Assembly: GCF_056712565.1 (NCBI RefSeq)
Contig: NZ_CM160072.1
DNA: 64,000 bases
Direction: 5' to 3' (one strand)
This document shows positions 6,300 through 53,995 of the stretch, piece after piece (position 1 is the first letter of the stretch; each line of letters begins with the position of its first letter). The position numbers were made by a program, and so were the translations under genes. A model generated the notes under the pieces. That model made no database searches. It saw only the letters and a program-made list of their open reading frames with translations, and was not told the DNA's origin.

Positions 6300-6502
6300 T
6301 GTCATTCAAAATCGGCATACCTTCCTTTAATGTATTTATTTTCCCAATAAATATATGAGATTTACCTCATAATTACTTCCTAAAGTGTAATATTTTATTT
6401 TTTAATATATACGCCTACAATTTCCTGGAGTAAATAAATAACAATTAACAAGCATAATATTGCCATTGATAAAATAGCATGCCATAAAAGGACTTTTCAG
6501 GG

Positions 6503-7681
6503 ATGAGTAATATTGTTTATCTGACAGTAACGGGAGAACAACAAGGAAGCATCTCCGCAGGTTGTGGGACTACTGAATCTATAGGTAATCGCTGGCAGAG
6601 CGGTCATGAGGATGAAATATTTACATTCTCACTCTTAAATAGTATTACTAATACGGGGCTTGGTTCACAGTTCCATGGTATAACATTTTGTAAATTAATT
6701 GATAAAAGCACTCCATTATTTATTAATTCCATTAACAATAATGAACAATTATTTATGGAATTTGACTTCTATCGAATAAATAGATTTGGTAGATGGGAAA
6801 AGTATTATTATATACAACTAAGAGGCGCTTTTTTATCGGCTATTCATCACCAGATCTTTGAAAACCAACTGGATACAGAAACAATAACTGTTAGTTATGA
6901 ATTTATCCTCTGCCAACATCTTATCACTAACACCGAGTTCAGCTATTTGGCACTCCCTGAAAATTATAACCGCTTGTTTTTACCAAATTCAAAAAACAAA
7001 ACAAATAATGGTTTAAAAACGTTAAACAGCGAAGCTGTTGGCAGGCTACTTGCTGCTGGTGGCGTATACAATGGGAACATTGAAGGATTCAGAGATACTG
7101 CGGAAAAACTGGGTGGAGATGCAATCAAAGGCTATGATCAAATACTAAATGAAAAAACAGCGGGCATAGCGATAGCAACAGCATCTATTCTTTTAACAAA
7201 GCGTTCTAATGTTGATACATATACAGAAATAAATAGTTACTTAGGCAAACTTAGAGGCCAACAAAAACTTCTTGATAGTATAGACATAATAGAAATAATA
7301 TAAATTAAGAGACCTTCAAAAGACTTAGCTAACTTACGAAAGGAGTTTAATAAAAATGTAAGAAAAAATTTTCTTATCAAACTTGCAAAAACCTCCGAAG
7401 CATCTGGAAGATTCAACGCCGAAGACCTTTTAAGAATGAGAAAGGGCAATGTTCCTCTAAATTATAATGTACACCATAAACTATCTCTAGATGATGGTGG
7501 TACTAATGATTTGGAAAATTTAGTATTAATCGAAAACGAACCATATCATAAGGTTTTTACTAACATGCAATCACGAATAGCTAAGGGAATATTAGTGGGT
7601 GAAAGCAAAATCACTCCCTGGGCCATTCCATCTGGCTCAATTTATCCTCCCATGAAAAATATTATGGAACCCACAAAATGA
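6503..7681 (+). pseudogene. yhhZ: yhhZ-like Hcp-domain polymorphic toxin with C-terminal HNH nuclease domain, interrupted by an in-frame TAA at 7301-7303
   Basis: ORFs 6503-7303 and 7436-7681 share one reading frame; codons after the TAA continue open (IKRPSKDLANLRKEF...) into an HNH motif (HHKLSLDDGGTNDLENLVLIENEPYHKVF). 266+1+125 codons equals the 392-aa K-12 YhhZ length as I recall it. Confidence 0.65.
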
Positions 7682-8172: not shown

Positions 8173-8621
8173 TAATAAAAAGGTAACCAAAATCATTGTA
8201 AACCATGCCATCTTTTTAGAGTTTACCAGCAGTAAATTTCTTGATCGAAATTTATCAATACAAGCTATAGAAAAACTTACAACGGAACTACACTCCTTAA
8301 GTGAGATGGACCGAAGACATGTAGTCGCTATTTAAACTGAAATAGCTAATGGCGATGATGATCTTAGTGACATGTTGATTTGGTTAGAATTTTACCCGAA
8401 TCATAAGATTCTGATATCTTAAATGAGCAAATCCGGTTCGACGTTCTGGAAAATAAATCACAAAATATTAGCAGATACTTATTTTGTGACTATACCTTAT
8501 CCGATGAACTCTTTTCAAAACCAGCATTTAATAATATCTTTGACGAAGATGAACGCGTCTTTGCTCAATGTATAACGCAGGAATAATAATATAACGCTAA
8601 ACAATAATATTTATTATAATT

Positions 8622-24443: not shown

Positions 24444-24845
24444 TTGAACCAGTTCAATATTATAATTCTGACACACGGTGAGGCAGGGAATGCTTTACTC
24501 GCCAGTAGCGAAATGATTGTAGGTAAAACACCGCATACTACAGCTATTTCTCTGATGCCGGGAATGTCACCTGAAGCACTTATGCAACAAGTAAAAACCA
24601 TACTCAATCCTGATGTAGAAACAATCATATTTACGGATATTTATGGCGGCACACCTTCAAATATCGCCTACCTTCTTTCACGAGAATTTCCCATTCGCTG
24701 CATCAGCGGTGTCAATCTGGCAATGTTAATTGAAGCCAACATGTTACAGGATTCTGACGAAGAACAGTCCTTTGATGAATATATTCAGCATATACATGAT
24801 GCTGGTAAAGAGATGATTCAAACTTATTGTTTTAATAAAGGATGA
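24444..24845 (+). CDS. PTS mannose/sorbose-family EIIA component (accessory)
   Basis: 133 aa; aligns with the ManX IIA domain (IIILTHGEAGNALL vs IVIGTHGWAAEQLL; TDIYGGTPSN vs VDTWGGSPFN; GVNLAMLIE). TTG start with an AAGGAA RBS. Confidence 0.8.
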   Translation: MNQFNIIILTHGEAGNALLASSEMIVGKTPHTTAISLMPGMSPEALMQQVKTILNPDVETIIFTDIYGGTPSNIAYLLSREFPIRCISGVNLAMLIEANMLQDSDEEQSFDEYIQHIHDAGKEMIQTYCFNKG

Positions 24846-24851
24846 TAAACT

Positions 24852-25337
24852 ATGAGTATAGTACATGCCCGTATTGATTACCGTTTAATTCATGGACAAG
24901 TCATAACAAAATGGCTAAAAAGGAGTGATGCAAATAAAATAATTGTTATTGATGATCCCTTGTCACGCGATCCTTTCCTGGCTGAAGTCTATAAGATGGC
25001 AGCGCCAAGTGGTGTTGAAGTCATAATGACCTCCATTGAAGATACGTTACAACGCTGGAACAGCAATAGTTTCTATGAAGGTAAATTACTAATTCTTTTC
25101 AAATCGATCGATTCTGCATTAAAAACTATACAAGGTGGTTTGATGTTAGAGGAATTACAAGTCGGTGGTGTTGAAAATACTCCGGGAAGAAAAATTGTCT
25201 TTAACCAAATATCACTCAACCACGAAGATGCCGACAAACTTCAAATCATCGAAGATAAGAATATCAAAGTTTATTTCCAAACTATTCCTGAAGAAGATCC
25301 TGCCAGCCTACAAAAAATCAAAAATAAGTTACCTTAA
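24852..25337 (+). CDS. PTS mannose/sorbose-family EIIB component
   Basis: 161 aa; conserved phospho-His motif ARIDYRLIHGQV as in ManX-IIB and LevE. Confidence 0.8.
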   Translation: MSIVHARIDYRLIHGQVITKWLKRSDANKIIVIDDPLSRDPFLAEVYKMAAPSGVEVIMTSIEDTLQRWNSNSFYEGKLLILFKSIDSALKTIQGGLMLEELQVGGVENTPGRKIVFNQISLNHEDADKLQIIEDKNIKVYFQTIPEEDPASLQKIKNKLP

Positions 25338-25353
25338 TTAAGGAGAGGAGCTT

Positions 25354-26100
25354 ATGTCTATTTTTACAGCAGCAATGATTGCCCTGGTATATTGGATATC
25401 CCAAGCAAAAGTATGGTACGGCTTTTCTATTATGCGTATGCCATTATCGATAGCACCTATTATGGGACTCATCTTTAATGATATGCCAACTGCTTTATCT
25501 GTTGGGGCCACCTTACAGATGATCTATATCGGGAGTATTGCCCCGGGAGGAAATCCTCCTGCAGATGAAGGTCTAGCCTCGTGTATAGCAATTCCAATTG
25601 CACTTACCGCAGGTATTAAACCAGAAATTGCTATCTCTTTGGCTATTCCACTGGGATTGCTCGGCGTTGTTCTGGAAAACGTACGTAAAACACTGAATAC
25701 CACATTTATCCACATGGCTGATCGCTACGCAGAAAAAGGTGATATAAAAGGCATCCAACGCGCAGCCACAATATATCCTCTCCTGTTAGCCTTTCCGATG
25801 CGTTTTGTACCGGTATTCATCGCCTGCCTGTATGGCCCGGATGCCATTGCCTCTTTTGTAAACCTGCTTCCCGCCTGGTCGACGAATGGCCTGGCAATTG
25901 CCGGTAATATTCTGCCTGCACTCGGTTTTGCGATAACCATAATTGTTATCGGTAAGAAACAATACATCCCTCTGTTCATTATTGGCTTTTTCCTCGTGAC
26001 CTATTCAGGCTTGAATACCATTGGCATCTCTATTTTTGGACTCTGTGCCGTCCTCTTATATATGCAGTCACAAAATACAAAAGGAACTAAAAATGGATAA
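25354..26100 (+). CDS. PTS mannose/sorbose-family EIIC membrane component
   Basis: 248-aa polytopic membrane ORF between IIB and IID; size and position typical of Man-family IIC. Confidence 0.75.
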   Translation: MSIFTAAMIALVYWISQAKVWYGFSIMRMPLSIAPIMGLIFNDMPTALSVGATLQMIYIGSIAPGGNPPADEGLASCIAIPIALTAGIKPEIAISLAIPLGLLGVVLENVRKTLNTTFIHMADRYAEKGDIKGIQRAATIYPLLLAFPMRFVPVFIACLYGPDAIASFVNLLPAWSTNGLAIAGNILPALGFAITIIVIGKKQYIPLFIIGFFLVTYSGLNTIGISIFGLCAVLLYMQSQNTKGTKNG

Positions 26101-26947
26101 TATAATTGAGTCAGGATACTCAGAATCCTCCCCTATTACGAAAAGAGACGTTCAGATTGTTTGGCTAAAATGGCACGCGTTCTCTGAAACATCATTGAAC
26201 TTTGAACGTTTACAAGCACTGGCATTTTGCAATGCAATGACAGGCGTATTGGCGAAGCTATACCCAGATGAAAAAGATCTCGCCAAAGCCTTACAGCGCC
26301 ATTTAACCATGTTCAACACACAGGCTAACTGGGGCTCGGTTATCGCTGGTATTAGTATTGCACTGGAGGAAAAAGCCGCCCAGGAATCAGAAGAACAACG
26401 TGAATCAACAACACAACTTGTTACGGGTTTAAAAACTGGTCTTATGGGGCCTGTATCGGGTATTGGTGACACGTTAGACTTTGGTACATTGCGTCCCATT
26501 GTTATTGGTGTCTGTATCCCGTTTGTTATTCAGGGATATGTTATTGCTGCACTTCTCCCCCTGATTTACCAGGTTAGTTATATGTTCTTCGCCAGTCGAT
26601 TTGCTCTTAATATCGGCTATAAAAAAGGGAAAGAGTCAATTCTGGAAATCTTGCATTCCGGGAGCATACATCGAATTATCGAAGGTGCTGGAATGTTCGG
26701 GCTGTTGATGATGGGGGCGCTTTCAGCAACGTATGTAAAAATTAAGACGCCATTGCATATTACAACCGGCGGTGGCAATACCATTGTCTTACAGGATATG
26801 CTAGATAAAATTGTCCCTAACATGTTGCCACTTATTGCCGTGTTGGGTATTTATTTTTACATACAAAAATGTGGCCCTCATTTCTTACGTATTCTGGTCA
26901 CTATTCTTGTTTTGAGTCTTGCATTTTCTTTCTTTGGCCTTTTATAA
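26093..26947 (+). CDS. PTS mannose/sorbose-family EIID membrane component
   Basis: ATG at 26093 with RBS AAGGAA, overlapping the IIC stop by 8 bp; 284 aa with hydrophilic N-terminus then TM segments. The ORF track start at 26021 is an extension. Confidence 0.75.
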   Translation: MDNIIESGYSESSPITKRDVQIVWLKWHAFSETSLNFERLQALAFCNAMTGVLAKLYPDEKDLAKALQRHLTMFNTQANWGSVIAGISIALEEKAAQESEEQRESTTQLVTGLKTGLMGPVSGIGDTLDFGTLRPIVIGVCIPFVIQGYVIAALLPLIYQVSYMFFASRFALNIGYKKGKESILEILHSGSIHRIIEGAGMFGLLMMGALSATYVKIKTPLHITTGGGNTIVLQDMLDKIVPNMLPLIAVLGIYFYIQKCGPHFLRILVTILVLSLAFSFFGLL

Positions 26948-26948
26948 A

Positions 26949-27869
26949 ATGAAAAAGATAATTATCACTCCCCGGCCTTTTGTGGGTAAAGGCAAGGTCT
27001 ATATTGATAAGTTAAAATCCGCAGGTTATCAAGTTGAATGTAATAACAGTGGAGGTCGATATAGCAAGGAAGAACTCATCGAGAAAATTAAAGACGCGAA
27101 TGCCATTATCACCGGAAACGATCCTCTGAGCAGAGAAGTTATTGATCAGGCAAAAAACCTGAAGGTTATTTCAAAATATGGCGTAGGGTTAGATAACATA
27201 GATGTCGATTACGCAAATAGTAAAGACATCGTGGTACATAAAGCTCTTAATGCTAACTCTATTTCTGTTGCAGAAATGACCATTCTGATGATGCTCTCCA
27301 GTTCCCGAAAATATGTTGAAATCGAGAGTCAGGCAAGAAATGGTAAGGACATCAGGCTTGTCGGGTATGAGCTATATCAAAAAAATCTGGGATTAATTGG
27401 ACTTGGTGCAATTGGTCAACATGTTGCTCATATTGCTCATTCTATGGGAATGACGATTACTGCTCATGATCCTCATATTGATAAAAGCAAGGTTCCATCC
27501 TATATAGAACTTAAATCACCTGATGAAATATATCAGTACAGCGATGTAATTTCTCTGCATTTACCTTTACTGGACAGTACTCGCAATATAATTAACGACT
27601 CTGTATTTGAGAAAATGAAATCTTCGGCTATTTTAATCAATACAGCCAGGGGTGGATTGGTCGATGAGAAAAGTTTATATACCGCACTTAGCAATCAGAA
27701 AATTGCTTTTGCCAGTGAAGATATTGAACTGAGAGAACGTTCAAAAGAACTCACCGAACTTAAAAATTATTCTATTACCCCTCATGCCGCTTCATTTACC
27801 GATGAGGCCGACCATAACACAATGCAAATTTCTATTAAAAACGTATTACAGGAACTGGAGAAAGAGTAA
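26949..27869 (+). CDS. D-isomer-specific 2-hydroxyacid dehydrogenase family, NAD-dependent
   Basis: 306 aa; Rossmann GLIGLGAIGQ and catalytic-region motifs (INTARGGLVDE, PHAA); start overlaps the IID stop region. Confidence 0.75.
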   Translation: MKKIIITPRPFVGKGKVYIDKLKSAGYQVECNNSGGRYSKEELIEKIKDANAIITGNDPLSREVIDQAKNLKVISKYGVGLDNIDVDYANSKDIVVHKALNANSISVAEMTILMMLSSSRKYVEIESQARNGKDIRLVGYELYQKNLGLIGLGAIGQHVAHIAHSMGMTITAHDPHIDKSKVPSYIELKSPDEIYQYSDVISLHLPLLDSTRNIINDSVFEKMKSSAILINTARGGLVDEKSLYTALSNQKIAFASEDIELRERSKELTELKNYSITPHAASFTDEADHNTMQISIKNVLQELEKE

Positions 27870-28753
27870 TGAAAGAGCTCAAAGGGATTATTACCGCAAT
27901 GGTAACGCCTTTCGATGAAACGGAAAAAATGGATATCACTGCGGCGAAAAAAATGGCGCGCTGGTTAGTAGATAATGGTGTTCATGGTTTATTCATTTGC
28001 GGAACTAATGGTGAATTCCATTTGCTTTCCGATGACGAAAAAGTTGAGTTAACAAAAGCCGTCGTTGAAGAGGTCGGTAATGAAGTTACCATTTGTGCAG
28101 GTGCTGGGTGCTGCAGCACAAAACAAACCATCGAATTGACTAAACGGTTAGTTGATGCGGGTGCCGATTATATTTCTGTTGTCACGCCGTACTATCTGGT
28201 ACCAAATCAGGAAGATTTATACCGTCACTATTACGATATTGCCTTTAGCACAACAGCCCCCATCATTCTCTATAACCTGCCGGGCCAGACAGGATTAAGC
28301 ATCGAATACGAAACGGCAAATCGTTTAGCCGATATCAAAAATATCGTAGCGATAAAAGACAGTAGCGGTAAATTCGAAGTCCAGAAACAGTATCTGGAAA
28401 TCGCTAAACATAAAAACTTTAAGGTATTAAACGGCTCTGACTCGTTAATGCTGGATGCATTTAAAGAAGGTTCTGTGGCTGCTGTCGCTGCAACGTCGAA
28501 TGTTCTGCCTACGATTGAAGTCGATTTATATAATTACTTCATGGCCGGTGAAATGGAGAAGGCGCAGGAAGAGCGTAATAAAATGGATGCACTGCGCATG
28601 ACGATCAAGAAAATGACCGCGCCTGCAGTAATGAAGGAAGCATTAAACCTGATGGGTGTGAAGGCAGGTATTACACGTAGACCAATTCATATGCCAAACG
28701 ACGCGATCGTTGAAGACATCAAGGAAATGTTGAAAGGCTATAATTTCCTGTAA
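27869..28753 (+). CDS. DapA/NanA-family class I aldolase or lyase (Schiff-base lysine)
   Basis: 294 aa; motifs GTNGEF, YNLPGQTG and AIKDSSG (Schiff-base Lys) as in dihydrodipicolinate synthase and N-acetylneuraminate lyase; TAATG overlap with the dehydrogenase. Confidence 0.75.
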   Translation: MKELKGIITAMVTPFDETEKMDITAAKKMARWLVDNGVHGLFICGTNGEFHLLSDDEKVELTKAVVEEVGNEVTICAGAGCCSTKQTIELTKRLVDAGADYISVVTPYYLVPNQEDLYRHYYDIAFSTTAPIILYNLPGQTGLSIEYETANRLADIKNIVAIKDSSGKFEVQKQYLEIAKHKNFKVLNGSDSLMLDAFKEGSVAAVAATSNVLPTIEVDLYNYFMAGEMEKAQEERNKMDALRMTIKKMTAPAVMKEALNLMGVKAGITRRPIHMPNDAIVEDIKEMLKGYNFL

Positions 28754-48087: not shown

Positions 48088-48285
48088 CACCTCCCAACGC
48101 GCCGTTATTTCCTGACGGCGCAGTAGACTTCTGCCAAATATCGACTCACGTCACATTTTGTTGATCACGATTTGGTCCCCTAAAATGTGAGACGCTTCGA
48201 TCCTCTTTTTCGCCTGTTCACCTACTATACGCTTGAAGTTGTCCATGATTGTCCATAGACAACTGTAAATGTTCAGGTGCGCGCC

Positions 48286-49032
48286 ATGAAATCATTGAGT
48301 AAGTCGTCACAAATACCGCTCTATCAACAAGCGGTGGAGTGGATAAGAGAAAGTATTTATACCGGGGATCTGGTGGAAGACGATCGCATTCCTTCGGAAT
48401 ACCAGATTATGGATATGCTGGAAGTGAGCCGGGGAACCGTTAAAAAAGCGGTCGCCCAACTGGTAAAAGAAGGCGTGTTGATACAGGTCCAGGGGAAGGG
48501 AACATTTGTCAAAAAAGAGAACGTGGCATATCCGTTAGGTGAAGGATTATTGTCATTCGCGGAATCGCTGGAAAGCCAGAAAATACATTTTACCACTGAA
48601 GTTATTACGTCACGGATTGAACCGGCTAATCGTTATGTGGCAGAGAAATTAAGAATAACGCCCGGTCAGGATATTCTTTACCTTGAGCGTTTACGTTCAA
48701 TTGGTGATGAAAAAGCGATGCTGATAGAGAACCGTATCAATATTGAGCTATGCCCCGGCATCGTGGAAATCGATTTTAATCAACACAATTTATTTCCAAC
48801 AATAGAAAGTTTGTCGCAAAGAAAAATTCGTTACTCGGAAAGTCGCTATGCCGCGCGATTAATTGGTAATGAACGCGGTCATTTTTTAGATATCAGTGAA
48901 GATGCACCCGTTTTGCATCTGGAGCAGTTAGTCTTTTTCTCCCGAGGATTACCCGTTGAGTTTGGCAACGTCTGGTTAAAAGGAAATAAATACTATCTTG
49001 GCACCGTGCTGCAACGGCGGGAAGTGAGTTAA
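48286..49032 (+). CDS. GntR/HutC-family transcriptional regulator (accessory island)
   Basis: About 248 aa; N-terminal winged HTH (YQIMDMLEVSRGTVKKAVAQLVKEGVLIQVQGKGTFV) and C-terminal UTRA-like domain. The ORF track offers a GTG at 48277. Confidence 0.75.
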   Translation: MKSLSKSSQIPLYQQAVEWIRESIYTGDLVEDDRIPSEYQIMDMLEVSRGTVKKAVAQLVKEGVLIQVQGKGTFVKKENVAYPLGEGLLSFAESLESQKIHFTTEVITSRIEPANRYVAEKLRITPGQDILYLERLRSIGDEKAMLIENRINIELCPGIVEIDFNQHNLFPTIESLSQRKIRYSESRYAARLIGNERGHFLDISEDAPVLHLEQLVFFSRGLPVEFGNVWLKGNKYYLGTVLQRREVS

Positions 49033-49056: not shown

Positions 49057-49530
49057 ATGCAAGGCATACAGTTTCAGGAAAATTTTATTCAACGACTTCC
49101 GGCAGGGTTAAGCGTTGAACAGATCATCCATCAGTTAGCGCAACCGTTGGTTACCGCCGAACTGGTGGTCCCTGATTTTGCCGATCATGTACTGGAACGT
49201 GAGGCGACGTACCCAACGGGACTGCCTACCGAACCACCGTGTGTCGCCATTCCGCACACGGACCATAAACATGTCAGGCACAATGCAATTGCCGTCGGTA
49301 TCCTGCCGGAACCGGTAGTGTTTGCCGATATGGGCGGCGACTCTGATCCCGTACCTGTCAGGGTGATTTTTTTGCTCGCCTTAGGCGAAAGTAATAAACA
49401 ATTAAATGCCCTGGGCTGGATTATGGAGATGATTCAGGATACGCCCTTTATGCGCGCCCTGCTTACGATGGAAACAACAGAAATACACACAGCAATCTTA
49501 AACAAAATGAAAGAACGAGGTGAAATATGA
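49057..49530 (+). CDS. PTS EIIA component, fructose/mannitol/galactitol/ascorbate-type (PTS_EIIA_2)
   Basis: 157 aa; size and position immediately before EIIB and EIIC fit a GatA/UlaC-like IIA. Confidence 0.65.
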   Translation: MQGIQFQENFIQRLPAGLSVEQIIHQLAQPLVTAELVVPDFADHVLEREATYPTGLPTEPPCVAIPHTDHKHVRHNAIAVGILPEPVVFADMGGDSDPVPVRVIFLLALGESNKQLNALGWIMEMIQDTPFMRALLTMETTEIHTAILNKMKERGEI

Positions 49531-49808
49531 GTCAAACCATTTTATTTGTCTGCGCCACGGGTATTGCCACATCCACGGCAGTAACAGAAAAAGTCATGGA
49601 ATATTGTAAAGAGCACGGTCTTAACGTCAATTATTCCCAAACCAACGTTGCCTCTTTACCTGGAAATACTGACGGCGTAGCACTGGTAGTCTCAACGACT
49701 AAAGTGCCTTATGAACTCGACGTCCCGGTGGTTAACGGCTTGCCGATTATTACCGGTATTGGCGAAGAGAAAGTACTGGCGCAAATTGTTTCGATCCTTA
49801 AAAAGTAA
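49527..49808 (+). CDS. PTS EIIB component, GatB/UlaB-like
   Basis: 93 aa; N-terminal phospho-cysteine motif ILFVCATGIATS (Cys about position 9); ATGA overlap with the IIA gene. Confidence 0.75.
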   Translation: MSQTILFVCATGIATSTAVTEKVMEYCKEHGLNVNYSQTNVASLPGNTDGVALVVSTTKVPYELDVPVVNGLPIITGIGEEKVLAQIVSILKK

Positions 49809-49884: not shown

Positions 49885-51243
49885 ATGAACGATATCGCGC
49901 ATACCCTCTATAATATTGTGCAATATATATTGGGATTTGGTCCCACGGTAATGTTGCCGTTGGTGTTATTTATTCTTGCTCTCTTTTTTAAAGTAAAACC
50001 CGCTAAAGCCTTACGTTCGTCATTAACGGTCGGCATTGGTTTTGTCGGTATTTATGCCATTTTCGATATTCTTACCAGCAATGTCGGGCCAGCGGCCCAG
50101 GCGATGGTTGAACGCACCGGAATTAATTTACCGGTGGTGGATTTAGGCTGGCCGCCGCTTTCCGCTATTACATGGGGTTCGCCAATTGCCCCGTTTGTTA
50201 TTCCCCTGACTATTCTGATTAACGTGGCGATGCTGGCGTTAAATAAAACCCGCACCGTTGACGTAGATATGTGGAACTACTGGCATTTTGCCCTTGCCGG
50301 TACGCTGGTTTATTACAGCACCGGCAGCCTGTTCTTTGGTTTGCTGGCAGCGGCGATTGCTGCGGTGGTAGTACTTAAACTCGCCGACTGGTCTGCGCCA
50401 CTGGTACAAAAATACTTTGGCCTGGAAGGGATCTCTTTGCCGACGCTCTCTTCGGTGGTGTTCTTTCCGGTCGGTCTGTTGGTCGACAAAATCATCGACC
50501 ATATCCCCGGCCTCAATCGTATTCATATCGATCCGGAAACCGTACAGAAAAAGTTTGGCATATTCGGCGAACCGATGATGGTTGGTACTATTCTGGGCAT
50601 TCTGCTCGGCGTAATTGCCGGATACGATTTCAAAAAAGTCTTGCTGCTTGGCATCAGCATTGGCGGTGTGATGTTCATCCTGCCACGCATGGTTCGCATT
50701 CTGATGGAAGGTTTATTACCGCTGTCTGAAGCCATTAAAAAGTATCTCAATGCCAAATACCCTGACCGTGACGATCTCTATATCGGCCTGGATATCGCCG
50801 TTGCCGTAGGTAACCCGGCGATTATCTCCACCGCCCTGCTGCTGACGCCAATCTCGGTCTTTATCGCGTTTGTCCTTCCGGGTAATGAAGTCCTGCCGCT
50901 TGGGGACCTTGCCAACCTGGCGGTAATGGCGTCGATGATTGCTTTAGCCAGCCGTGGCAACATTTTCCGCACCGTTCTGGCGGCGATTCCGGTGATTATT
51001 GCCGATCTGTGGATTGCGACTAAAATCGCGCCGTTTATTACCGGAATGGCGAAAGACGTTAATTTCAAATTTGCCGAAGGCTCCAGCGGCCAGGTCTCCA
51101 GTTTCCTTGATGGCGGTAACCCGTTCCGCTTCTGGCTGCTGGAAATCTTCAACGGCAATCTCATCGCCATTGGTCTGGTGCCGGTTATCGCCCTGGTACT
51201 GTATGGTATTTTCCGAATGACGCGGAGCACGGTTTATGCCTGA
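49885..51243 (+). CDS. PTS EIIC permease, galactitol/ascorbate-type
   Basis: About 452-aa polytopic membrane protein; ATG at 49885 preceded by RBS AAGAGG. The ORF track start at 49855 is an extension. Confidence 0.75.
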   Translation: MNDIAHTLYNIVQYILGFGPTVMLPLVLFILALFFKVKPAKALRSSLTVGIGFVGIYAIFDILTSNVGPAAQAMVERTGINLPVVDLGWPPLSAITWGSPIAPFVIPLTILINVAMLALNKTRTVDVDMWNYWHFALAGTLVYYSTGSLFFGLLAAAIAAVVVLKLADWSAPLVQKYFGLEGISLPTLSSVVFFPVGLLVDKIIDHIPGLNRIHIDPETVQKKFGIFGEPMMVGTILGILLGVIAGYDFKKVLLLGISIGGVMFILPRMVRILMEGLLPLSEAIKKYLNAKYPDRDDLYIGLDIAVAVGNPAIISTALLLTPISVFIAFVLPGNEVLPLGDLANLAVMASMIALASRGNIFRTVLAAIPVIIADLWIATKIAPFITGMAKDVNFKFAEGSSGQVSSFLDGGNPFRFWLLEIFNGNLIAIGLVPVIALVLYGIFRMTRSTVYA

Positions 51244-52744
51244 TAACAGCGCAGCTATCGTTATCGATATTGGCACCACCAATTGCAAAGTCACCTGCTT
51301 TTCCTGCCTGGACGCAACGACGTTGGGCGCGCATAAATTCGTGACGGCAAAACAGATCTCCCCACAGGGCAATGTCGATTTCGATATCGACGCCCTCTGG
51401 CAGGAGGTCCGCCAGGCGATAGCGCAACTGAACGCCGCTTCGCCGCTGCCAGTCAGGCGGATCAGCATTGCCAGTTTTGGCGAGTCAGGGGTGTTTCTTG
51501 ACAAACATGGCGAGATTCTGACGCCAATGCTGGCATGGTATGACCGTCGCGGTGAAGAGTATCTGGCAACGCTTAGCGAGGCAGACAGTGCGGCACTTTA
51601 TGACATTTGCGGGTTACCACTGCACAGCAATTACTCTGCCTTCAAAATGCGTTGGTTGCTGGAGCATTATCCGCTGCGCAATCGTCGCGGCCTGCGCTGG
51701 CTACATGCACCGGAAGTGCTGCTCTGGCGGCTGACTGGCGAACAGCGAACGGATATCACCTTAGCCAGCCGTACACTGTGTCTGGACGTGCGCAAAGGCG
51801 AATGGTCAGCGAAAGCGGCGGCGTTGTTACACGTTCCCTGTTCAGCATTTGCGCCATTGTTGCAGCCAGGTGAGCACGCCGGATGGGTCAGTGAGTCGCT
51901 CTGCAAAACGCTTGGGTTCTCGCAATCGGTCAGCGTGACGCTGGCCGGACATGACCATATGGTGGGTGCGCGGGCGTTGCAGATGATGCCGGGCGATATC
52001 CTTAACTCGACGGGCACCACGGAAGGCATTCTGCAACTGGATACACAACCGACGCTGGATGAACAGGCCAAACGTGACAAGCTGGCAAACGGCTGTTACT
52101 CGCTTGCCAACCAGTTCACCCTGTTTGCTTCTCTGCCCGTGGGCGGTTTCGCGCTGGAGTGGCTGCGTAACACGTTCCGGCTAACCGATGAGGAGATCGC
52201 CGTGTCGCTCAATCGTGGGTATGCGGATTACCTGGCGGGGAACTGGTCGCTCGATGACATTCCCGTTTTTATTCCGCATCTTCGCGGTTCGGGTTCGCCC
52301 TATAAAAATCGCCATACCCGAGGATTATTTTATGGGCTTGGCGATACGTTAAATATCGATATGTTAATTGCCAGCGTCTCACTGGGATTAACCATGGAAT
52401 TTGCCAACTGCTTCGCCTGTTTTAATGTGCCCGGCACCAGCGCGTTAAAAGTGATAGGTCCGGCAACCCATAATCCCCTTTGGCTGCAATTAAAGGCGGA
52501 TATTTTACAGCGTCCGGTTGAAGCAATTGCATTTAACGAGGCGGTTTCTGTCGGAGCATTATTAACCGCCGCACCGGATATTCCACCGCCGCAAGTCACC
52601 ATAGCCCAACGTTTGTTACCGAATCGGGCGAGATACCATCAATTACAGCGTTATCAGCACAAATGGAAAAGCTGGTATCAGTTGAAATTACAGCAAGAAG
52701 GCGTGATGCCATTACATCATCGGGAGGAGCACTATGTTGAGTAA
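51236..52744 (+). CDS. FGGY-family carbohydrate kinase
   Basis: 502 aa; N-terminal FGGY motif AIVIDIGTTNCKV; 8-bp overlap with the IIC gene. Confidence 0.75.
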   Translation: MPDNSAAIVIDIGTTNCKVTCFSCLDATTLGAHKFVTAKQISPQGNVDFDIDALWQEVRQAIAQLNAASPLPVRRISIASFGESGVFLDKHGEILTPMLAWYDRRGEEYLATLSEADSAALYDICGLPLHSNYSAFKMRWLLEHYPLRNRRGLRWLHAPEVLLWRLTGEQRTDITLASRTLCLDVRKGEWSAKAAALLHVPCSAFAPLLQPGEHAGWVSESLCKTLGFSQSVSVTLAGHDHMVGARALQMMPGDILNSTGTTEGILQLDTQPTLDEQAKRDKLANGCYSLANQFTLFASLPVGGFALEWLRNTFRLTDEEIAVSLNRGYADYLAGNWSLDDIPVFIPHLRGSGSPYKNRHTRGLFYGLGDTLNIDMLIASVSLGLTMEFANCFACFNVPGTSALKVIGPATHNPLWLQLKADILQRPVEAIAFNEAVSVGALLTAAPDIPPPQVTIAQRLLPNRARYHQLQRYQHKWKSWYQLKLQQEGVMPLHHREEHYVE

Positions 52745-53003
52745 AACCGTGGAAGTCAGAAACAGTACTGGCCTGCATGCACGTCCGGCGGCCTGTCTGG
52801 CGAAAGCCGCCAAAAAATATAGCTGTAAAGTGACGCTGCACTATGAAGGTAATGATATTAATGCCACCAGCATGATGAATATTATGCGCGCCGGAATAAA
52901 AGGCGGAAAAACGGTGGAAATACGCTGCGAAGGTGATGATGAAAACGAGGCAATACAAACTCTCACTACCTTATTTCGCGACCGCTTCGGTGAAGCTGAA
53001 TAA
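52734..53003 (+). CDS. HPr-family phosphocarrier protein paralogue
   Basis: 89 aa; active-site motif GLHARPA (His-15 equivalent) and a Ser-46-like region (ATSMMNIM). Confidence 0.8.
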   Translation: MLSKTVEVRNSTGLHARPAACLAKAAKKYSCKVTLHYEGNDINATSMMNIMRAGIKGGKTVEIRCEGDDENEAIQTLTTLFRDRFGEAE

Positions 53004-53034: not shown

Positions 53035-53886
53035 ATGCCATTAGTTAATGGACGGATACTGCTCGACCGCATTCAGGAAAAACGGGTATTAGCGGGCGCA
53101 TTTAATACCACCAATCTGGAGACAACGATTTCAATTTTAAACGCCATTGAGCGTTCAGGATTACCCAACTTCATTCAGATTGCGCCCACCAATGCACAAC
53201 TGTCGGGATACGATTACATTTATGAAATCGTGAAACGTCACGCTGATAAAATGGATGTTCCGGTCAGTCTTCATCTTGATCACGGGAAAACTCAGGAGGA
53301 TGTTAAACAGGCGGTGCGCGCGGGCTTTACCTCGGTCATGATTGACGGTGCCGCATTCTCTTTTGAAGAGAATATCGCTTTCACCCAGGAAGCTGTCGAT
53401 TTCTGTAAATCCTATGGCGTACCGGTTGAAGCGGAGCTGGGGGCGATTCTCGGCAAAGAAGACGATCACGTCAGCGAAGCCGATTGCAAAACGGAACCGG
53501 AAAAGGTGAAGACCTTTGTCGAACGCACCGGTTGCGACATGCTGGCAGTTTCTATTGGTAACGTTCATGGCCTGGACGATATACCGCGGATCGATATCCC
53601 CCTGCTGAAGCGCATTGCCGAAGTCAGCCCGGTGCCGCTGGTTATTCACGGCGGCTCCGGTATCGCCCCGGAGATATTACGCAGTTTCGTTAATTATCGC
53701 GTCGCTAAAGTGAATATCGCCAGCGATCTGCGCAAAGCGTTTATCACCGCAGTCGGCAAAGCGTATGTGAATAATCACAACGAGGCGAATCTGGCACGGG
53801 TGATGGCATCAGCAAAAAACGCCGTCGAGGAAGATGTGTATAGCAAAATCCTGATGATGAATGAGGGGCATCGGTTGGGTAAGTAA
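53035..53886 (+). CDS. Class II (metal-dependent) ketose-bisphosphate aldolase, GatY/KbaY/FbaA family
   Basis: 283 aa; motifs LHLDHG, VIHGGSG and overall resemblance to tagatose-1,6-bisphosphate aldolases. Confidence 0.8.
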   Translation: MPLVNGRILLDRIQEKRVLAGAFNTTNLETTISILNAIERSGLPNFIQIAPTNAQLSGYDYIYEIVKRHADKMDVPVSLHLDHGKTQEDVKQAVRAGFTSVMIDGAAFSFEENIAFTQEAVDFCKSYGVPVEAELGAILGKEDDHVSEADCKTEPEKVKTFVERTGCDMLAVSIGNVHGLDDIPRIDIPLLKRIAEVSPVPLVIHGGSGIAPEILRSFVNYRVAKVNIASDLRKAFITAVGKAYVNNHNEANLARVMASAKNAVEEDVYSKILMMNEGHRLGK

Positions 53887-53891
53887 ATCTT

Positions 53892-53926
53892 CGCCGGATG
53901 CGGCGTGACGCCTTATCCGGCCTACA
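53892..53926. repeat. REP element at the right edge of the nikR-yhhJ island
   Basis: Sequence gccggatgcggcgtgacgccttatccggcctaca. Confidence 0.7.
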
Positions 53927-53995
53927 AAACCACTAAAATTCAATAAATTGCACCAATGCGTAGACCCTATAAGCTTACGCATCGGGCAACTGTAA

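Follow-up and report, generated by a model that had tools for sequence, protein, structure and literature searches.

Why should an operon for a phosphotransferase system (PTS) encode an HPr of its own, when its host species has the general HPr, PtsH, as well? This question is raised by a gene in the window, by which we mean the whole analysed stretch of 64,000 nucleotides from the NCBI RefSeq assembly GCF_056712565.1, contig NZ_CM160072.1. There, an operon of seven co-oriented genes lies between nikR and the convergent yhhJ, and its sixth gene codes for an HPr-family phosphocarrier (Table 1). We consider it probable that this HPr acts as a dedicated carrier between the general Enzyme I and the EIIA of its operon, similar to the HPr-like domain FPr, but in the form of a free-standing protein of 89 amino acids. 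The identity of the gene was known beforehand from the RefSeq annotation, in which it is already listed as 'HPr family phosphocarrier protein' (WP_000949581.1). What is added here is that the HPr is a constant component of an operon family across the Enterobacterales and part of an HPr clade that is tied to Gat-type PTSs.

The open reading frame (ORF) comprises 89 codons from an ATG start to a TAA stop and is translated into MLSKTVEVRNSTGLHARPAACLAKAAKKYSCKVTLHYEGNDINATSMMNIMRAGIKGGKTVEIRCEGDDENEAIQTLTTLFRDRFGEAE, in which GLHARPA covers residues 13-19 and thereby provides His15 and Arg17, and in which Ser46 lies within NATSMMNIM. The first-pass annotation, which was made from the letters alone, had recognized the HPr signature in GLHARPA, and this was borne out by matches to the Pfam family PTS-HPr (PF00381; E = 2.7e-29, residues 3-82) and to the NCBIfam model TIGR01003, 'HPr family phosphocarrier protein' (103.5 bits vs. 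a cutoff of 47.9). In the alignment with PtsH, NPr, and FPr, the catalytic His15 is present and Arg17 as well; when DhaM and FryA are included (15 sequences), Gly13, His15, Arg17, and Pro18 are invariant, and in an alignment of 59 HPr sequences the same holds for Gly13, His15, Arg17, and Gly67. The AlphaFold2 model based on the latter alignment has a mean predicted local distance difference test score (pLDDT) of 97.2 and the order beta-alpha-beta-beta-alpha-beta-alpha, with predicted strands at residues 2-7, 32-37, 40-43, and 60-66 and predicted helices at 16-26, 47-52, and 70-82. According to Foldseek, it resembles the HPr of T. tengcongensis (3LE3) with a template modelling (TM) score of 0.94 and E. 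coli HPr (1POH) with 0.86. Since the ORF matches the Pfam and NCBIfam models, keeps its frame across several genera, has a ratio of nonsynonymous to synonymous substitution rates (dN/dS, see below) typical of a selected protein, and is predicted to have the HPr fold, it is a true HPr gene and not a chance ORF. The antisense ORF at 52596-52958 was set aside as a mechanical product of the ORF list opposite the Pfam-supported HPr gene.

Between neighboring genes of the operon there are either overlaps of 4-11 nt or short gaps. The EIIA and EIIB genes share 4 nt at the EIIA stop, and the ATG of the HPr gene lies 11 nt inside the end of the gene for the FGGY kinase, the C-terminal codons of which (REEH) supply a GGAGG motif 6 nt upstream of this ATG. 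As predicted from the gene layout, it is most likely that the HPr gene is co-transcribed and translationally coupled with the operon. Promoter-like and terminator-like matches across the operon region, including those around the HPr gene, are no commoner than in shuffled sequence, and an internal promoter or terminator at the HPr gene was therefore rejected. The same operon holds the complete downstream relay, consisting of an EIIA with an AIPH histidine (His67) that aligns with the conserved PH motif of GatA, PtsN, and FruB, an EIIB with an N-terminal cysteine, and a Gat-type EIIC. The locus encodes all PTS steps but Enzyme I, for which it has no gene.

In the pathway that we propose, the general Enzyme I (PtsI), which is encoded elsewhere, would phosphorylate His15 of the HPr from phosphoenolpyruvate (PEP), and the HPr would hand the phosphoryl group over to His67 of the operon EIIA, from where it would be passed via Cys9 of EIIB to an incoming ketose or related sugar. 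The FGGY kinase would then add a second phosphate, and the aldolase would split the resulting bisphosphate into triose phosphates. The transporter would thus gain its own entry from Enzyme I, parallel to PtsH. We infer the donor and the acceptor of the HPr, as well as the pathway, from sequence comparison. In the complex of HPr with the N-terminal domain of Enzyme I (EIN), Arg17, Lys24, and Lys27 of PtsH face Enzyme I, with the lysines directed towards an acidic surface. All 16 operon HPrs retain both lysines, in place of which NPr has Glu and Gln. Because the locus has no Enzyme I gene and the residues facing Enzyme I are kept, it is most likely that the HPr is charged by the general PtsI and forms a parallel branch that is not fully private. 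The first-pass annotation had suggested a private phosphorelay for this PTS. The part about a dedicated carrier finds support in the presence of the HPr in every related operon and in purifying selection, but full privacy has to be given up, as no Enzyme I is encoded at the locus.

Is the HPr gene a regular part of such operons? Related loci were sought by a kinase-alignment scan with one genome per species, and more were reached via HPr homologs. An HPr gene is present in each of the 10 loci from the species-representative scan as well as in each additional locus fetched, and these HPr-bearing relatives span Escherichia, Citrobacter, Enterobacter, Pantoea, Winslowiella, Salmonella, and Klebsiella. 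They fall into four gene orders. Type A (GntR-IIA-IIB-IIC-kinase-HPr-aldolase) is found in Escherichia species, Citrobacter amalonaticus, and two metagenome contigs, in all cases at the nikR site. Type B (GntR-aldolase-IIA-IIB-IIC-kinase-HPr) is found in Pantoea and Enterobacter cancerogenus, and type C (GntR-IIA-IIB-IIC-kinase-aldolase-HPr) in Winslowiella, a metagenome-assembled genome of the Enterobacterales, and Salmonella Typhimurium. Type D consists of IIA-IIB-IIC-kinase-Zn-dehydrogenase, followed by GntR-aldolase-HPr, in some cases SurE, and a second Zn-dehydrogenase, and occurs in Klebsiella michiganensis, an Enterobacteriaceae genome, and Pantoea agglomerans. The location of the HPr gene between kinase and aldolase was thus described correctly in the first-pass annotation, but it is not unusual, since it represents one of four gene orders, and the position within the operon means little. 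The HPr gene itself, being constant, is a useful marker of the operon family and a handle for finding the substrate.

In a neighbor-joining tree of 85 HPrs with 500 bootstraps, types A and B group together in 489 and types C and D in 470 replicates. In the best tree, the operon HPrs belong to a clade of 20 members together with four outside sequences (P0180, P0188, P0191, and P0204). Three of these four (P0188, P0191, and P0204) sit in other EIIA-EIIB-EIIC(Gat) operons, which contain a PRD/Mga-type regulator, an enzyme of the Aldolase_II family, and the HPr, and then an Fe-alcohol dehydrogenase or adjoining DhaK/DhaL. Since the Gat-type EII genes are constant and the catabolic enzymes differ among the operons of this clade, the shared partner of its HPrs would be the EIIA of the Gat-type transporter and not the kinase or the aldolase, which is our main argument. 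Another neighbor in the tree, P0207, belongs to an ordinary locus with fruK, fruA, two HPr genes, and ptsI. An exhaustive search with phmmer against 1.84 billion cluster representatives returned one close cluster, which is of the A/B type with 69% identity, and the others reach at most about 50%.

Selection on the seven genes was estimated as dN and dS by the method of Nei and Gojobori against the window copy. The dN values are 0.02-0.08 for GntR, EIIB, and EIIC, 0.18-0.27 for EIIA, 0.15-0.24 for the kinase, and 0.12-0.47 for the HPr, for which dN/dS amounts to 0.06-0.24. The HPr is under purifying selection, yet, like its presumed partner EIIA, it is one of the proteins of the operon that evolve fast. 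The identities between the window and Salmonella proteins are 82% for GntR, 61% for EIIA, 84% for EIIB, 90% for EIIC, 63% for the kinase, 90% for the aldolase, and 44% for the HPr.

The operon with its HPr gene occurs in an all-or-none manner in E. coli and is found in 1635 (30%) of 5426 complete genomes, always on the chromosome and nearly always as a single copy. Apparent partial operon remnants in 280 genomes were rejected, because these matches cover only the yhhJ flank of the query. The carriers include ST131, Nissle 1917, O157:H7, O55:H7, O103, O145, and O78, and also B2 lineages of neonatal-meningitis and avian origin. The operon HPr is mostly 95-99% identical among E. coli genomes, whereas 5425 of the 5426 genomes have ptsH, with an identity of 99% or more in 5420 of them. 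Because ptsH is present in practically every genome, the operon HPr is a true extra paralog, as it had been called at first sight, and it is far more variable than ptsH. The fast evolution of HPr, EIIA, and kinase, together with a near-invariant ptsH, fits a carrier with few partners.

The tree does not support strict orthology of all operon HPrs, which was rejected, as types A, B, C, and D are monophyletic together in 1 of 500 bootstraps. Several points weigh against a dedicated carrier. Two HPr lineages that are about 44% identical occur with one and the same orthologous EIIA (61-75% identity). In Klebsiella, on the other hand, an HPr of the Salmonella type goes with an EIIA that is only 28% identical to the Salmonella EIIA. 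Type D resembles the Salmonella operon in its aldolase (88%) and HPr (83%) and is distant in EIIA (28%), EIIB (45%), EIIC (54%), and kinase (35%). Tight co-evolution of HPr and EIIA was rejected, as the EIIA identities do not split by HPr type, and judged from the sequences the specificity between the two cannot be very tight. In type D, the HPr gene is also located in the GntR-aldolase unit, away from the EII unit. Because of the lineage split, the differing positions, and the mosaic type D, the HPr gene has evidently been relocated or replaced at least once in the history of the operon family, though it was never absent. The gat (GatA) and sgc (SgcA) operons of K-12, with EIIAs of the same superfamily, have no dedicated HPr gene, and therefore a Gat-type PTS needs no HPr of its own in principle. 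In some E. coli assemblies, HPr alleles with a disrupted N-terminus occur, for example P0045 of 57 amino acids on 55 contigs. In these products (P0045, P0046, P0013, and P0027), translation begins at codon 33 or the N-terminus is scrambled and lacks His15, and they may represent an inactivated allele in a minority of lineages or assembly errors. Finally, our literature search turned up papers on the Salmonella operon only, and neither the operon of E. coli nor the HPr encoded in it was the subject of any paper found. A comparison of the A/B and C/D consensus sequences shows agreement at 23 of 32 positions in the canonical interaction surface (residues 10-29 plus 46-57) and at 18 of the remaining 57 positions, a difference that would be expected of HPrs in general, which are most conserved in this surface.

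From several of these points the main rival explanation, redundancy with PtsH, draws its strength. It holds that the HPr is functional, but that PtsH does the same job, so that the gene hitch-hikes and perhaps adds carrier dosage on induction. The HPr evolves fast compared to EIIB, EIIC, and the aldolase, and two HPr lineages appear interchangeable in otherwise orthologous operons, which together with the disrupted alleles and the K-12 operons is what would be expected of a spare copy. However, the dN/dS values indicate that the protein sequence is under selection, and each of the four gene orders, as well as three additional operons of the Gat type, includes an HPr gene, although the hosts have ptsH, which was checked here for E. 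coli; carriage of ptsH is established for the Enterobacterales generally. Furthermore, if types A/B and C/D acquired their HPr separately, it was gained twice rather than lost, which would be odd for a dispensable gene. Retention in every related operon under purifying selection is easier to reconcile with a dedicated carrier than with a spare copy, and we therefore regard redundancy as unlikely, albeit as the best of the alternatives. If the HPr is redundant after all, it is an ordinary paralog that has already been annotated. If, on the other hand, Gat-type PTSs of this kind need their own HPr, the PTS of pathogenic E. coli would branch at Enzyme I once more than in the textbook view based on K-12, and related operons are also present in Salmonella enterica and many other Enterobacterales. 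In this case, ptsH mutants of operon-bearing strains may keep PTS activity after induction of the operon, and the carrier could partly uncouple sugar uptake from HPr-based regulation.

A second alternative assigns a signaling role to the HPr, the His15-phosphorylated form of which would mainly regulate the FGGY kinase, the GntR regulator, or other targets, as is the case for NPr. In Firmicutes, phosphorylated HPr activates glycerol kinase at a phosphohistidine. The HPr gene is never adjacent to the EIIA gene, is coupled to the kinase gene in types A and B and grouped with GntR-aldolase in the Klebsiella-type order, and one HPr lineage accompanies two very different EII sets, all of which would suit a regulator. 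However, no histidine is present in the loop of the kinase aligned with the activation loop of glycerol kinases, neither in the window protein nor in the consensus of three orthologs, and an NCBIfam search showed no PRD domain in the GntR regulator. The Gat-type EII genes are all that the nearest outside relatives have in common with the operon, and the Enzyme I-facing lysines are kept, unlike in NPr, so that a mainly regulatory HPr seems rather improbable.

Considerably less probable still is the assumption that the HPr does not, or not solely, feed transport and that phospho-HPr, directly or via EIIA, phosphorylates or activates the FGGY kinase, by which the second phosphorylation would become dependent on PEP, comparable to the PTS-dependent dihydroxyacetone kinase DhaKLM. 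This idea rests on the translational coupling of HPr and kinase in Escherichia and Pantoea and on one HPr gene located directly after DhaK/DhaL (locus L035). At residues 405-416 of the kinase, VIG(P/A)A is found in all four operon types (VIGPA in the window) in place of the VDGGA of glycerol kinase, which alone represented the FGGY family in the alignment, and in other FGGY kinases a GG motif belongs to the nucleotide-binding pocket. The motifs DIGTTNCK (DxGTT) and AGHDHM (GHD) are intact in the kinases of all four types.

That Ser46 serves as target of a kinase of the HprK/P type in catabolite control, as in Firmicutes, is very unlikely, although Ser46 is present, the identity to T. tengcongensis HPr (44%) exceeds that to PtsH (34%), and a relative with 47% identity is encoded between hprK and ptsI, because all ten C/D-type HPrs have Gly46, E. 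coli PtsH has Ser46 too, and HprK/P is not known from enterobacteria. Ser46 is found in the window HPr and in all six A/B (Escherichia/Citrobacter/Pantoea-type) sequences, and the sequences with Gly46 come from Salmonella, Citrobacter rodentium, Yersinia, Serratia, Klebsiella, Pantoea, and Erwinia; the regulatory phosphorylation considered in the first-pass annotation is thus not supported.

How does the carrier compare to known systems? The window HPr is 34% identical to PtsH, 32% to NPr, 30% to the HPr domain of FruB, 27% to the domain of DhaM, 24% to that of FryA, and 40% to HPr of B. subtilis, and it scores under the cutoff of all NCBIfam equivalog models for E. coli carriers. FPr, the HPr-like domain of FruB in E. 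coli and Salmonella, is likewise operon-encoded, serves one sugar PTS with an EIIA of the PF00359 type, and is charged by the general Enzyme I, and its pathway also proceeds via a second phosphorylation to cleavage by an aldolase. However, FPr is the C-terminal domain of an EIIA-M-HPr fusion of 376 amino acids encoded in the fruBKA operon, whereas the window HPr stands alone and reaches only 59.7 bits with the FruB model PRK11109 (cutoff 302). FruK is a kinase of the PfkB family, in contrast to the FGGY-family kinase of the window operon. With PtsH, the window HPr has fold, length, His15/Arg17, Lys24/Lys27, and Ser46 in common, but it scores 52 bits with PRK10850 (cutoff 153), and its gene lies outside ptsHI-crr and is accessory (30%) and variable. 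NPr (PtsO) is also a stand-alone HPr paralog of about 90 amino acids with a PF00359-type EIIA as partner, but differs in the score (PRK10897, 48.5 bits vs. 119), in Glu24 and Gln27, in its location in the rpoN operon, and in having its own Enzyme I paralog, of which the window locus encodes none. The Salmonella operon STM3779-STM3785 is homologous in content, with six of its seven proteins being 61-90% identical to those of the window, whereas its HPr (STM3779) is 44% identical, is encoded after the aldolase, has Gly46, and is located at a different chromosomal site. This operon was described as a complete PTS of unknown specificity that is repressed by H-NS (PMC3604774), and STM3784 is activated by ArcA (PMC3075218). 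In the Salmonella locus, a RelE/HTH pair directly follows the HPr gene. Among solved structures, the best match to the window HPr is that of T. tengcongensis (PDB 3LE1/3LE3; E = 1e-20, 44% identity, TM 0.94), but this protein and the HPrs of Firmicutes are general HPrs of hosts with HprK/P and CcpA, whereas the window HPr is an operon-specific enterobacterial paralog. The TPr domain of TagH in the D-tagatose PTS of Klebsiella oxytoca is another carrier for a ketose, with rephosphorylation and a class II tagatose-bisphosphate aldolase; TPr is fused to EIIA in a PTS of the fructose family, whereas the window PTS belongs to the Gat family. The D-tagatose cluster of B2 strains and Nissle 1917 (PMC9720028) was rejected as the window operon, since that cluster uses an ATP-binding cassette (ABC) transporter.

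The operon had been labeled an island, but a recent acquisition was rejected on account of the common insertion site, the saturated dS, and protein identities similar to those of the flanks. The window is an E. coli chromosome of the phylogroup B2 type, and the 5.9 kb around the HPr gene are 100% identical to the B2-type E. coli strains S88, UM146, IHE3034, NU14, and ATCC 11775 (type strain). The nikR-yhhJ site of the operon is shared with other Escherichia species and C. amalonaticus, and the identities between E. coli and C. amalonaticus are 93% for GntR, 96% for EIIC, and 94% for the aldolase, compared with 95% for the flanking NikR and 94% for YhhJ. Moreover, synonymous sites are saturated between genera in all seven operon genes, and therefore no recent transfer has taken place. 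In K-12, the nikR-yhhJ junction is occupied by rhsB-yhhH-yhhI. Judged from these comparisons, the operon looks like an old locus that was lost in many E. coli lineages. In O157:H7, a hicA/hicB toxin-antitoxin pair is inserted between aldolase and yhhJ (locus L017, 8212-8843), which is not present in the corresponding gap of the window (53887-53995). The P. agglomerans type D locus lies near conjugation (Tra) genes.

What might be transported? The EII proteins score under the cutoffs of the true galactitol models (GatA 57.8 vs. 139, GatB 60.2 vs. 95, and EIIC-GAT 475.6 vs. 542 bits), and the operon contains no gene for a GatD-type dehydrogenase or for GatZ. Because of these scores and since no dehydrogenase is encoded in the operon, galactitol is not the substrate; the PTS belongs to the Gat transporter family without being the galactitol system, and its substrate is most simply assumed to be a ketose. 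The type D loci (L026, L028, and L031) appear as mosaics of a Salmonella-like GntR-aldolase-HPr module, a distant EIIABC-kinase set, and two Zn-dependent dehydrogenases, which suggests a polyol-utilizing variant.

Table 1. Features of the operon and its surroundings in the window.
Feature	Position	Strand	Basis
Control region upstream of operon, conserved	48186..48262	+	sequence reading, consensus resemblance only
GntR/HutC-family transcriptional regulator	48286..49032	+	NCBIfam GntR-family matches; RefSeq WP_001332161.1
PTS EIIA, PF00359 type, active-site His67 in VAIPH	49057..49530	+	NCBIfam GatA/FruA-type matches, all under equivalog cutoffs
PTS EIIB, galactitol type, Cys9 in FVCATG	49527..49808	+	NCBIfam PRK10310 60 bits; translation
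PTS EIIC, galactitol (Gat) family	49885..51243	+	TIGR00827 EIIC-GAT 475.6 bits (cutoff 542); RefSeq
FGGY-family carbohydrate kinase	51236..52744	+	NCBIfam, motifs DIGTTNCK and AGHDH
HPr-family phosphocarrier paralog (His15, Arg17, Lys24, Lys27, Ser46)	52734..53003	+	ORF, profiles, alignment, predicted fold
Class II ketose-bisphosphate aldolase, PRK07998 equivalog	53035..53886	+	NF005943 555 bits vs. cutoff 364
REP-type palindrome between aldolase stop and convergent yhhJ stop	53893..53925	.	sequence reading

The control region contains a CRP-like element, TGTGA-N6-TCGAT (48186-48201), a -10-like TACTAT (48223-48228), and the repeated, palindromic TTGTCCATGATTGTCCATAGACAA at 48239-48262, which is likely to be the operator of the GntR-family regulator and is regarded here as a putative one. 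The same elements are found upstream of the GntR gene in the loci of Escherichia, Citrobacter, Pantoea, E. cancerogenus, Winslowiella, and Salmonella, and TTGTACATAGACAA, which resembles TTGTCCATGATTGTCCATAGACAA, is located upstream of EIIA in the Klebsiella-type loci. The longest ORFs for GntR and EIIC begin with GTG at 48277 and 49855, respectively, compared with the RefSeq starts at 48286 and 49885. The RefSeq starts suit the homologs better, as it is only from residue 4-6 of the long EIIC ORF onwards that other genera align with it in tblastn. The palindrome GCCGGATGCGGCGTGACGCCTTATCCGGCCTAC downstream of the aldolase gene is presumably of the repetitive extragenic palindromic (REP) type, according to the E. 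coli consensus. Elsewhere in the window, a second accessory PTS cluster is located at 24444-28753 between livJ and rpoH according to the RefSeq annotation of S88; it encodes mannose-family EIIA, EIIB, EIIC, and EIID, followed by a phosphoglycerate-dehydrogenase-like and a DapA-like gene, but no HPr. The S88 record, which is identical to the window, has tssD (Hcp-like, approximately 6502-7680 of the window) and yrhD (approximately 8266-8421) annotated as pseudogenes with internal stops.

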